NCBI GenBank assembly: GCA_000503835.1
Contig: CP006914.1
Span: 785,680 to 849,679 of the forward strand
Direction of reading: 5' to 3'
Source of the DNA: a candidate division WWE3 bacterium RAAC2_WWE3_1
GTDB lineage: Bacteria; Patescibacteriota; WWE3; UBA101185; UBA10185
DNA: 64,000 nucleotides
Shown here: positions 17,573 to 46,119 of the stretch, piece after piece
Layout: each line of letters opens with the position of its first letter
How positions within the stretch are numbered: the stretch's first letter is position 1
Program-made: the position numbers and the translations under genes
The notes under the pieces: generated by a model
Database searches by the model: none
The model's input: only the letters and a program-made list of their open reading frames with translations
Told to the model about the DNA's origin: nothing

Positions 17573-17998
17573 ATGCAACTGCTCAAAGATATTTACAATA
17601 ACGCCGAAGCCCTGAAAGGGCGCAGGCTCATAACCGCGACCGTTGCCCTTTCAATAGTTTTCCTGGGAATCGGCATTTTCATAGGTTATCTTAACAACCT
17701 CATATTAAAAAAAGGTGAAATATCAATGGATACGGTACTTCCTCCCCCTGTGGCAGACACTACAATCGTGCTTGAGGGCCGCGTAGTCTATACCAACCCG
17801 GAATACTACCCCGGTGATGAGATATCATTTGTTTTGACAGATGCCTCCGGTAAGGAAGTTTCTTTACTCAGGGCCGATGACGACAAACTGGCTTTAGCCG
17901 AGGGGTTAAATGTTAAAGTGCGGGGCGATGAGATGAGGACCAAGTCAGGAACCAAGTATTTAATGGTCAGGGAGGTTATTATTAATGCCGCAAATTGA
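17573..17998 (+). CDS. Hypothetical membrane-anchored protein.
   Basis: Single N-terminal TM (ITATVALSIVFLGIGIFIGYL). Overlaps the ftsE start. Confidence 0.3.
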   Translation: MQLLKDIYNNAEALKGRRLITATVALSIVFLGIGIFIGYLNNLILKKGEISMDTVLPPPVADTTIVLEGRVVYTNPEYYPGDEISFVLTDASGKEVSLLRADDDKLALAEGLNVKVRGDEMRTKSGTKYLMVREVIINAAN

Positions 17999-18671
17999 AT
18001 TTATCAACGTTTCCAAAGAATATGATCCCGGCAAAAAAGTGCTGGATGATGTGACGTTCAAAGTTGAACCAGGTGAGTTTATGTTCGTAGTCGGGCCTTC
18101 GGGTGCAGGTAAGTCGACGATTATTAAATTGCTGACCAAAGAAGAAATGCCCGAAGTCGGAGACATCCTGTTTAACGGTGAGAGTATTTTGAATATTTTA
18201 AAGGAGTCCGTACCCGATCTGAGAAGAAAGATTGGCGTTGTTTTTCAGGACTTCAGGCTTCTGGACTCAAAAACTGTTTTTGACAATGTCGCAGTGGCCC
18301 TGGAAGTTGCCGACTCAAATTTAGACGAGATCAGAAGCATCGTACCCAATGTTCTGAACATGGTCGGATTAACAGACAAAATGTTCAAGTATCCCAGACA
18401 GCTTTCGGGAGGAGAAAAACAAAAAGTCGCTATTGCCCGCGCATTAGCCCACGAGCCCGACGTCATATTAGCCGACGAGCCTACAGGGATGATAGATCCT
18501 GATTCTGTGGATGATGTGCTCGAGGTTCTCGAAAAAATAAACTCCTTGGGTACCACGATCTTAATGGCCACGCACGACCAGGAGATTGTGAACGCGATGA
18601 AAAAGAGGGTGCTCCGTATCGAAAGAGGTCAGGTAATTTCGGATAAGAAGGGGGGAAAATATCGTGGCTAA
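17985..18671 (+). CDS. ftsE: Cell division ATP-binding protein FtsE.
   Basis: Walker A is GPSGAGKST; LSGGEKQKVAIARAL signature; 228 aa. Confidence 0.85.
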   Translation: MPQIEFINVSKEYDPGKKVLDDVTFKVEPGEFMFVVGPSGAGKSTIIKLLTKEEMPEVGDILFNGESILNILKESVPDLRRKIGVVFQDFRLLDSKTVFDNVAVALEVADSNLDEIRSIVPNVLNMVGLTDKMFKYPRQLSGGEKQKVAIARALAHEPDVILADEPTGMIDPDSVDDVLEVLEKINSLGTTILMATHDQEIVNAMKKRVLRIERGQVISDKKGGKYRG

Positions 18672-19551
18672 AAGTTGGTCAATTTTCATGTCGAATATAA
18701 AGAAGGAGAAGTTGCTGAGCGTTTCAAATATCCTGATAATGACCGTTACTTTCGTTCTGCTCGGGCTTCTTATAAATATTGTAGTATTCTCACAGACTGC
18801 GTTAAGGTATCTGGAGGATCAAGCCCAGGTTACGGTTTTTTTCAAAGATGATTTCGGTGAAGACAAAATTGCCGTTTTAAAAGACAATCTGGCAAAAGAT
18901 AAAAGAGTATCCGAAATGGTGTATGTTTCAAAAGAAGACGCGCTGCGAATTTTCAGGGAAATAAATAAGGATGAACCTGTGTTGCTCGAGTCGGTCTCGG
19001 CTAGCATACTTCCTGCGAGTTTGGAAGTCCGCGCTGGAAATATTTCCAACCTAAAACCTTTAGCCGAAGAACTGAAGCTTTTGGATGGTGTGGAAGAAGT
19101 TAGATATTTTGAAGACGTGGTGTCCCGTTTCAAATTTTGGAGCACGGTAGTTTATATCGTTGGCACACTTTTGGTTCTGATATTTTTCGTGATCTCCTAT
19201 TCCGTAGTCATTGCTGCTCTGAGAACAACCATAAATTCTAAAGGCGTAGAGTTTGAAATCATGAAAGTAGTGGGAGCGTCTGATGACTACGTTAAATCAC
19301 CTCTTATACATCAGGGCGTGTTTTTCGGATTGTTCTCATCTTTTATAGCCTCCGTGATAATGATTTTGCTTGGGGTTGGAATTACGCTTGCCAATGTATT
19401 TCCCAAGGGATTGGGCCTTGGTTTTTTACCGGGTGTTTTTATGGCGCCGTGGGTTTTCTCAATAATTCTCACCTTCATCTTGCTTCTTTCAGGTTTCCTC
19501 CTGGGTTACCTCGGAAGCTCGGCGGCTATCAAAAAATATCTGAATTATTAA
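18664..19551 (+). CDS. ftsX: Cell division permease FtsX.
   Basis: Four TM topology with a large first periplasmic loop; immediately after ftsE. Confidence 0.8.
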   Translation: MAKSWSIFMSNIKKEKLLSVSNILIMTVTFVLLGLLINIVVFSQTALRYLEDQAQVTVFFKDDFGEDKIAVLKDNLAKDKRVSEMVYVSKEDALRIFREINKDEPVLLESVSASILPASLEVRAGNISNLKPLAEELKLLDGVEEVRYFEDVVSRFKFWSTVVYIVGTLLVLIFFVISYSVVIAALRTTINSKGVEFEIMKVVGASDDYVKSPLIHQGVFFGLFSSFIASVIMILLGVGITLANVFPKGLGLGFLPGVFMAPWVFSIILTFILLLSGFLLGYLGSSAAIKKYLNY

Positions 19552-19555
19552 AGTT

Positions 19556-20800
19556 ATGCTAAGTAAAAAAACGTTGTTATGGGTTTTACCCTTAATATTT
19601 TTTCTGATTCCTTTGATGACTGTTTTGGGTCAGACGACAGCAAATCCAGATGATGTTGAAGAATTGGAAGAAAAAATTGAAAAATATGAGGTGAAGATAA
19701 ACGAACTTCAAGGCAGAGCAAACACTTTAGCGAATGAAATAGAATACATGAACAGCCAGATCGGTCTTACAGAGCTTAAAATCCAAAACTCCGTTGCAAA
19801 GATAGCCAAGACTGAAAAAGAGATCCAAAAACTAGCAGGGGACATCGAAGATTTGAAAGCACGTATAGTAAAGCTGGAAAAGTCCATCGATTACCAAAAA
19901 GATGTATTGTCGGCAAGGATACGGGAACGGTATAAATCGCGGGATGAAAACGCCATGGTTGTGCTCTTTGGTTCGATAACGCTCGAAACCATGGTTCAAA
20001 AAGTAGAATATCTCAAAGCAATGGAAAGGTACGACAACAAACTTCTGGTAGAAATGGGAGACACAAAGACCAGGTACGACATGCAGAAAAATCTGTTCGA
20101 GCAGAAAAAAGAGGAGGAGGAAAAGCTAAAGTCCCAGCTGTTGAATGAAAAAGCTGCGCTGGATGTTTATAAAGGACAGTTGGACGCTCAGAAAGAGGAA
20201 AAAAAACAATTATTGGAGTCTACCCAGAACGACGAAAGTAAATACCAGCAACTCCTAAGGGAAGCTCAACGTGAGTTGGAGCAGATACTTGGGGCTGTCG
20301 GAGTGTTAATTAATACTGAATCAAGAGAAGTAGAAAAGGGAGAATTGATAGGAATACAAGGCAACACCGGACGTTCGTCGGGAGAACACCTACATTTTGG
20401 AGTTTATAGGTATTCGTCGTTGTCAGAGATAAACGGATGGAATTGGTATTACAGCAATACTGTCGACCCTCTCAAGAAATTGGAATCAAAAACTGTCACC
20501 TGGTATGACTGCGGTGTGTCAACTAAAACAGTGGGAAAAGGTGATTGGGATTGGCCAATAGCTGGTTCTGTAAAAGTTACAAATAGTTACGGCGACAATT
20601 GCTATAAATATACAGATAATGGGGGGAAAATGCATCCTGCCCTAGACTTAGTTGGGGCGCCAAGTTCTCCAATATACGCGGTTGATGACGGTGATGCCTA
20701 TTTCTGTAAAAATTGTCTCGGTGATGGTGCTAACGGAGTTTTCATTTTCCATGACGATGATTATATGACCGTGTACTGGCACTTACAGAACTACAAGTAA
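19556..20800 (+). CDS. EnvC/PcsB-like coiled-coil protein with an M23 (LytM) domain whose segments are in permuted order.
   Basis: Signal/TM, then a long coiled coil, then GNTGRSSGEHLHFGVY (the C-terminal M23 motif). About 75 aa later comes WPIAG...MHPALDLVGAPSSPIYAVDDGDAYF...VFIFHDDDYMTVYWHL (the N-terminal M23 motifs), after which the protein ends. Confidence 0.6.
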   Translation: MLSKKTLLWVLPLIFFLIPLMTVLGQTTANPDDVEELEEKIEKYEVKINELQGRANTLANEIEYMNSQIGLTELKIQNSVAKIAKTEKEIQKLAGDIEDLKARIVKLEKSIDYQKDVLSARIRERYKSRDENAMVVLFGSITLETMVQKVEYLKAMERYDNKLLVEMGDTKTRYDMQKNLFEQKKEEEEKLKSQLLNEKAALDVYKGQLDAQKEEKKQLLESTQNDESKYQQLLREAQRELEQILGAVGVLINTESREVEKGELIGIQGNTGRSSGEHLHFGVYRYSSLSEINGWNWYYSNTVDPLKKLESKTVTWYDCGVSTKTVGKGDWDWPIAGSVKVTNSYGDNCYKYTDNGGKMHPALDLVGAPSSPIYAVDDGDAYFCKNCLGDGANGVFIFHDDDYMTVYWHLQNYK

Positions 20801-45298: not shown

Positions 45299-45520
45299 AT
45301 GAGTACAAAAACCAAAAAATATCAGATCAACGAAAAAGATATCGACACTGTCTTAAATATCCTTAAGCGTACAGATCCGAAGCATGCCACACCAGAAATG
45401 GCTATCGATATCCTCGAGCATTTGCAAGCTACTTTTCATACCATGAGACATTATGATCCTGAAACTTTAGTTAAACTCTATGAAGAGCTAAAAAAGCAAA
45501 AGCAATTGAGTAGAAATTAA
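45299..45520 (+). CDS. Small hypothetical protein (73 aa), translationally coupled to the M23 gene.
   Basis: TAATG overlap with the next gene. Confidence 0.35.
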   Translation: MSTKTKKYQINEKDIDTVLNILKRTDPKHATPEMAIDILEHLQATFHTMRHYDPETLVKLYEELKKQKQLSRN

Positions 45521-46119
45521 TGGAATACAAGACCAAAACAAATTTAATTCTTCCGTTTCATGATAAATTAATGGTAAGTAATGGTGGTAGGTCCGCCGAA
45601 ACTAACAATCATTTCCGACCTGCAGGCTCGGGACCTCAGAACCAACTTTATGCCTACGACTTTCGCTCAGAAACGACTGGCAAGGAGACAAAACTTGAAG
45701 ATTTTACTGTATTTGGGATAGATGTTATCGCACCAGGAGAAGGTGAAGTTATACAAGTTGTGAATGGATCATTTGATTGCGAACCAGGACAATTTGATCG
45801 GAGTATAGGCGTAGGTAATATGGTTATCATTGACCATATGAACGGAGAATATAGCTTGTTGTGCCATTTTAAGCATGATTCTATCGTTGTAAAAGTAGGC
45901 GATATTGTAAAACAGGGGCAGAAACTTGGCCGGTGTGGAAACACCGGAAATACCAACCAGCCACATATACATTTCAATCTTCAAGACGGAGTGATGAGCT
46001 ATAGCGCGAGGGCATTGCCAGCTCAATTTGCCAAAATTTTAGTTAATGATGTGGAAAGAACTAATTACGAGCCTGTTCGATTCGAAAAGGTCACCAATAT
46101 TAAGCAAACAACACCTTAA
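45520..46119 (+). CDS. M23 family metallopeptidase (canonical motif order), with no signal peptide.
   Basis: VIIDHMNGEYSLLCHF...GNTGNTNQPHIHF. Confidence 0.7.
   Translation: MEYKTKTNLILPFHDKLMVSNGGRSAETNNHFRPAGSGPQNQLYAYDFRSETTGKETKLEDFTVFGIDVIAPGEGEVIQVVNGSFDCEPGQFDRSIGVGNMVIIDHMNGEYSLLCHFKHDSIVVKVGDIVKQGQKLGRCGNTGNTNQPHIHFNLQDGVMSYSARALPAQFAKILVNDVERTNYEPVRFEKVTNIKQTTP

Follow-up and report, generated by a model that had tools for sequence, protein, structure and literature searches.

The locus lies in a 64,000-nucleotide stretch of the genome of a candidate division WWE3 bacterium (hereafter the window, whose numbering is used throughout), and the window features given with coordinates below are on the + strand. 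Its core is formed by ftsE (17985..18671), which codes for an ABC ATPase (Pfam ABC_tran, 124 bits), and ftsX (18664..19551), whose start overlaps the end of ftsE. FtsX is composed of an extracellular and a permease domain; the former matched Pfam FtsX_ECD above the cut-off (65.8 bits), and the latter scored 23.3 bits with Pfam FtsX, just below the 25.5-bit cut-off. An uninterrupted ORF (19556..20800) starts after a gap of 4 nt behind ftsX and codes for a coiled-coil protein of 414 residues, followed by a stop codon, with an M23 domain in which the usual order of motifs is changed. Its position directly after ftsE-ftsX had been given, with exact coordinates, in the original prediction made from the sequence. 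On the other side, ftsE is preceded by ORF141 (17573..17998), which codes for a 141-residue membrane protein without a Pfam family and overlaps the ftsE start by 14 nt. ORF141 is kept directly 5′ of ftsE in 13 WWE3-like loci; it may thus be an additional member of the operon and is a candidate accessory component of FtsEX. An MltG/YceG gene is present farther upstream, and VanZ, TsaE, and a TsaB-like gene are found downstream. The conservation of ORF188, downstream of the M23 gene, was not detectable in relatives, and tRNA and Rfam scans yielded a single tRNA-Pro with no relation to the M23 gene.

The protein starts with a putative signal peptide or membrane anchor (residues 1 to 25, 19556..19630), identified from the sequence and from a hydrophobic helix (residues 4 to 23) in the AF2 model. 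It is followed by a coiled coil (residues 30 to 250, 19643..20305), which AF2 models as helices 32-52, 58-130, 143-223, and 227-250. The conserved portions of the coiled coil are the hairpin tip (about residues 104 to 169), where Pfam CC_PcsB scored 22.2 bits, i.e., under its 27-bit cut-off, and the last helix (residues 223 to 250), in which T223, E227, E240, and A247 are invariant in relatives. Residues 255 to 311 (20318..20488), which read VEKGELIGIQGNTG...HLHFGVY...VDPLKKL and include H278 and H280, correspond to the C-terminal third of M23, the part with the HLH motif, as recognized by Pfam, by alignments with PDB chains, and by an HMM of that segment (segC). A linker (residues 312 to 328, 20489..20539), predicted as a beta-hairpin with AF2 strands 312-317 and 321-326 and containing C319, connects this canonical C terminus to the canonical N terminus. 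The N-terminal two thirds of M23 come last, in residues 329 to 411 (20540..20788), as supported by NCBIfam, PDB alignments, and the corresponding segN HMM. This part harbors GDWDWPIAG, HPALD (H360 and D364), PIYAVDDG, a CxxC insertion, and YWHL (H409).

The motifs thus occur as HLH (278-280), HPALD (360-364), and YWHL (407-410), and the protein ends at residue 414, shortly after the YWHL block as had been predicted. The original prediction had the order of HLH and HPALD right but their spacing slightly short, with 82 residues found instead of about 75. Four cysteine residues, C319 (20510-20512), C349 (20600-20602), and C384 and C387 of the CxxC motif (20705-20716), are invariant or nearly so in the aligned WWE3-type relatives and might be paired in disulfides or bind a second metal. 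The CxxC insertion is absent in more divergent permuted subfamilies, e.g., that of the Gottesmanbacteria type.

Profile and structure-based alignments agree that the two parts of the domain have been exchanged. Pfam Peptidase_M23 (PF01551) gave 53.8 bits summed over two stretches, for a cut-off of 28.7, and the best stretch aligned residues 255 to 286 with profile positions 59 to 90 of 96, so that the end of the profile comes first. Among the NCBIfam models, the C-terminal parts of MepM, ShyA, and Pgp3 aligned with residues 255 to 284, and the N-terminal M23 parts of ActS, NlpD, and DipM aligned with residues 319 to 411. Against the solved M23 chain 9gy1_A, residues 346 to 413 matched chain positions 28 to 94, and residues 257 to 283 matched positions 100 to 126; in canonical order, the stretch that ends the protein therefore borders on the one that opens its domain. 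As far as sequence alignments can tell, such a pattern marks a clean circular permutation in which the domain was cut once, behind the YxHL strand. The original prediction had noticed the HLHF block ahead of the other motifs and had proposed a profile alignment as a check; the Peptidase_M23 match is indeed split and its order swapped.

We then rejoined the segments in silico by placing residues 318 to 414 before residues 245 to 317. The rejoined sequence gave one collinear Pfam match covering profile positions 2 to 90 of 96 at 61.5 bits, or 69 bits with a trimmed junction. It also produced single-stretch alignments with 22 solved M23 chains, including LytM, lysostaphin, ShyA, zoocin A, and DipM, to which the native sequence aligned in two swapped stretches. 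The collinear order HxxxD, YxH, HxH fails in the native protein, where the order is HxH, HxxxD, YxH. Two contiguous segments have thus changed places, and the rejoined sequence is both collinear and complete, which is what defines a circular permutation. Judging by these alignments, the M23 domain is a true circular permutation.

A second M23 protein in the window, outside the system (199 residues, 45520..46119), served as a control. It gave single collinear Pfam and PDB matches, showing that the method does not create the split. The original prediction had regarded this protein as a canonical M23 protein; its order is normal, but the His residue of HxxxD is absent, the motif being replaced by VFGID, with the loss of one zinc ligand. 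The protein has no obvious export signal and, instead of being an enzyme, may be a degenerate LytM factor.

When 5.8 billion proteins were searched, 252 relatives were retrieved; among the matches listed, 119 were full length, with 50 to 80% identity. The nearest named relatives belong to candidate division WWE3 and other Patescibacteria, and the database labels of the relatives are "peptidoglycan DD-metalloendopeptidase family protein," "CwlO-like," or "hypothetical." HxH precedes YWHL in all 119 full-length relatives listed, and H278, H280, H360, D364, and H409 are invariant in them. All five of these catalytic residues are also kept in members of about 25 to 35% identity. The relatives share the C-terminal boundary as well, with 118 of 119 ending one residue past YWHL. 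The C terminus of the window protein (YWHLQNYK, 20783-20800) is three residues longer than usual, an extension that is uncommon given this shared end point.

The distribution of the two arrangements was determined by scanning one genome per species and classifying the resulting 80 loci with HMMs of both halves (segC and segN). Fifty-seven loci were permuted and 20 had the normal order. The permuted loci come from WWE3, Levy-, Davies-, Gottesman-, and Pacebacteria, Microgenomates, and a few others, and the normal-order loci include Doudnabacteria, Kaiserbacteria, and other Patescibacteria. A large group of ultra-small Patescibacteria thus shares the permutation. The permuted gene lies directly 3′ of ftsX in 49 of the 53 loci in which the upstream DNA was long enough, and the two genes are usually 4 nt apart or overlap by 4 nt. 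The same ftsEX synteny is found on contigs of 58 kb and 994 kb. For normal-order genes, no ftsEX was found within 4 kb in any of the 19 loci with enough upstream DNA. In one permuted locus (L001, 1636-4865), the M23 gene is separated from ftsX by an insertion of five genes on the minus strand (Q_salvage, NUDIX, and others), which breaks the otherwise conserved adjacency.

AF2 models were generated with the family alignment. The full-length protein was modeled with a pLDDT of 89.4 as a signal or anchor helix (4-23), coiled-coil helices, and then a beta domain. The M23 domain alone gave one compact domain (pLDDT 92.2, pTM 0.90), a confident single-domain prediction as expected from the AlphaFold check that the original prediction had proposed. 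The top PDB matches of the full-length model in Foldseek were EnvC in FtsEX complexes (8tzl_E and 6tpi_A), and the N-terminal domain of RipA, PcsB, and RipC were also among the best. With the isolated domain, Foldseek found no M23 match in the PDB, and the only matches in BFVD were three phage internal virion proteins. As sequential alignment is limited on a permuted fold, we read the negative PDB result as a limit of the method and not as evidence against an M23 fold.

Could an assembly error, a frameshift, or a chimeric contig within the gene have produced the swapped order? We found no support for such an artefact, whose probability we consider negligible. The 119 full-length relatives come from NCBI, JGI, ENA, and Logan assemblies, and their common order and C terminus in independent assemblies argue against chance or misassembly. 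The swapped order also recurs in the 57 species-representative genomes and in 48 distant cluster representatives, the ORF of the gene runs without interruption, and a leftover C-half was looked for behind its stop codon and not found. The original prediction, which took the order to be no reading artefact and proposed orthologues as a check, was thus borne out, both in the 119 relatives and in the 57 species-representative loci. The domain might instead be completed between two chains, as in a domain-swapped dimer, or each half might be a separate remnant. PcsB offers a parallel for the former, as it forms an inhibited dimer in which the catalytic domain is inserted into the coiled coil of the partner (PMC11627006), and the failure of Foldseek to retrieve an M23 structure from the PDB would fit either idea. 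We nevertheless regard this arrangement as very unlikely, given the single compact domain modeled by AF2 (pTM 0.90, pLDDT 92), the four-residue linkers between tail and head in relatives, which fit intramolecular closure, and the alignment of the rejoined sequence without a gap at the junction.

A further alternative concerns activity rather than order, namely, that the protein is a catalytically silent LytM factor of the EnvC/NlpD type that activates another hydrolase, e.g., an amidase, and in which the permutation is merely tolerated. Its architecture and top structural matches are EnvC-like, and many M23-type FtsEX partners are regulators (PMC11627006). However, the five residues lost in EnvC-type factors are invariant here, even in the members of about 25 to 35% identity, and the NCBIfam EnvC model (NF008644) scored 19.6 bits for a cut-off of 270. 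In addition, the envelope of Patescibacteria is Gram-positive-like, and in that setting the known FtsEX partners are hydrolases themselves. On balance a silent factor appears unlikely. Our preferred reading, to which we assign a probability of about 80%, is that the gene codes for an extracytoplasmic FtsEX partner with a truly permuted M23 domain, a zinc peptidase that arose by tandem duplication. With its catalytic residues intact, unlike those of EnvC, the protein itself is most likely the endopeptidase, i.e., an active, FtsEX-gated enzyme predicted to act on peptidoglycan.

The envC gene is not normally next to ftsEX in E. coli, whereas the permuted gene of the window is translationally coupled to ftsX. 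The EnvC proteins of E. coli and V. cholerae (6TPI and 8TZL) resemble the protein in their export, long antiparallel coiled coil, C-terminal LytM domain, and functional link to FtsEX, and, as mentioned above, they are the top Foldseek match. In contrast, the LytM domain of EnvC is collinear, has lost its metal ligands, and activates amidases, whereas here the domain is permuted and the ligands are kept. The original description of the protein as EnvC/PcsB-like therefore stands for the architecture, as supported by AF2 and Foldseek, but not for an EnvC-like function. Retention of the catalytic residues that EnvC has lost indicates a functional likeness to the self-hydrolysing PcsB/CwlO/RipC class of Gram-positives and mycobacteria, in which the coiled-coil partner of FtsX is itself a hydrolase and is autoinhibited (PMC11627006). 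The weak CC_PcsB match at the hairpin tip, the Foldseek matches to PcsB and RipC, and the ftsEX linkage, found both in the window and in most permuted loci, are further points in common. The proteins of that class are CHAP or NlpC/P60 cysteine peptidases, however, and not permuted zinc M23 enzymes, and the NCBIfam PcsB model scored 18 bits here for a cut-off of 450.

The protein also resembles canonical coiled-coil M23 proteins of other Patescibacteria (e.g., Doudnabacteria L062, Kaiserbacteria L081, and L061-L080), which likely represent the ancestral form. Their coiled coil is homologous and their length similar, and they share with the permuted family a helix motif ahead of the domain (TK/QNxExxYQ, TQNDExKYQ-like) and the HLHFGVY block. 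They differ in having the N-half before the C-half, in ending at NPLxYL, and in lacking adjacent ftsEX. The alignments suggest that the permutation most likely originated from a tandem duplication of M23 in such a gene, after which the first N-half and the last C-half would have been lost. When a canonical Patescibacteria M23 domain was duplicated in silico, the permuted domain aligned with the tandem in one piece across the C-to-N junction (with L067, query 38-191, 154 residues, E value of 1e-14), whereas the natural, untandemised canonical relatives aligned in two swapped pieces. In the most divergent permuted proteins (L053, L054, L057, and L060), the NPLxYL tail is joined to the GRLxWP head by about four residues, as expected if the domain was duplicated head to tail and its outer halves were then lost; so short a junction also suggests that the canonical termini lie near each other in the fold. 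The original prediction had proposed this very route, and both the simulated tandem and the short junctions support it.

In a neighbor-joining tree of rejoined domains, whose resolution is low and for which the extraction of segments favored the permuted family, 100 of the 103 permuted sequences formed one clade with no canonical member inside, and three permuted outliers adjoined the canonical Patescibacteria group. The permuted arrangement is inherited, being kept in orthologues. No living coiled-coil-M23-M23 intermediate was found among the tandem M23 proteins recovered. The tandem (NCNC) proteins were rejected as intermediates because their N termini are BlaR1/M56-like sensors without a coiled coil, and P0172 was rejected as it is an N-terminally truncated tandem protein.

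A working model for the protein can be proposed by analogy with other FtsEX partners, in which a coiled coil docks on FtsX and the protein is autoinhibited until FtsE turns over ATP (PMC11627006). The N-terminal signal or anchor would export the protein, and the long antiparallel coiled coil would dock on the extracellular domains of FtsX in the manner of EnvC, PcsB, and RipC; judging only by gene adjacency and architecture, the coiled coil most likely binds FtsX. The chain would enter the C-terminal M23/LytM-type domain at the strand that normally follows the YxHL histidine, run via HxH to the canonical C terminus, pass through a short linker to the canonical N terminus, and continue through HxxxD to a stop that lies one residue past YWHL in nearly all relatives. 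By analogy with LytM, zinc would be held by H360, D364, and H280, and H278 and H409 would be catalytic. Turnover of ATP by FtsE would release the autoinhibited catalytic domain, whose predicted activity is to cut the peptide bridges of peptidoglycan. In this topology the loop after H409 is the point of both entry and exit of the chain, so that helix 223-250 and the C terminus should lie beside the active site, which makes that helix a good candidate for an inhibitory arm. We infer, speculatively, that it could be the arm released by ATP turnover.

It is tempting to ask whether the permutation is an adaptive rewiring rather than a neutral accident, with the coiled coil gating catalysis and the permuted M23 domain behaving as a distinct mobile module. 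Entry and exit of the chain would have been moved to the loop right behind the catalytic histidine, bringing the last helix, with its conserved T223, E227, E240, and A247, and the length-constrained C terminus to the rim of the active site. Movement of the coiled coil driven by FtsEX might then gate catalysis by occlusion or by pulling on a strand, and the geometry of coupling would differ from that in EnvC, PcsB, and RipC. The same scenario would cover L082, a type IV secretion-like cell-wall hydrolase, and LysM fusions (L083) as cases in which the module is reused. We hold this adaptive interpretation only tentatively, as possible rather than probable.

M23/LytM domains have a central role in FtsEX signalling and in the division of bacterial cells, as well as in antibacterial enzymes such as lysostaphin, and to our knowledge every example studied is collinear. 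A full-text literature search retrieved no report of a permuted M23, LytM, or lysostaphin domain and nothing relevant on FtsEX in Patescibacteria. A precedent for natural permutation of a catalytic domain in a cell-wall peptidase superfamily comes from the permuted NlpC/P60 families (YaeF/poxvirus G6R and LRAT-like), in which the catalytic residues swap order according to a passage in PMC6403190 that cites Anantharaman and Aravind 2003, although their fold and catalytic mechanism are other than those of M23. A natural, ancient, and widespread permutant would show that the M23 fold tolerates re-threading at the loop beside the catalytic histidine, a property useful in protein engineering, and it would provide a natural experiment on how a coiled coil relays the FtsEX signal to a catalytic domain. 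It also points to the likely division hydrolase of many Patescibacteria, whose cell biology is almost unknown. Tools that depend on sequence order under-describe the family, as seen from the split Pfam match, the absence of PDB M23 matches in Foldseek, and the generic database labels. The permuted domain should be of moderate interest to specialists of cell-wall hydrolases and FtsEX, and a regulatory meaning is plausible.

Other architectures emerged when 1.84 billion cluster representatives were searched exhaustively with HMMER; the best 150 included 48 permuted, 78 canonical, and 14 tandem M23 proteins. L082 (6001-9357) codes for a protein of 1118 residues with a permuted M23 domain at its C terminus, within a type IV secretion-like cluster that contains six T4SS_pilin genes, PrgI, a TraC-like gene, and a VirB4/TraG-like ATPase; this protein is likely the wall-piercing hydrolase of the apparatus. 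L083 (1023-2234) codes for a 403-residue fusion of LysM with a permuted M23 domain on a contig of 44% GC, adjoined by Ni-superoxide dismutase genes, so that the module may not be confined to the FtsEX context, nor perhaps to Patescibacteria. A short membrane-anchored form with the permuted module also exists.
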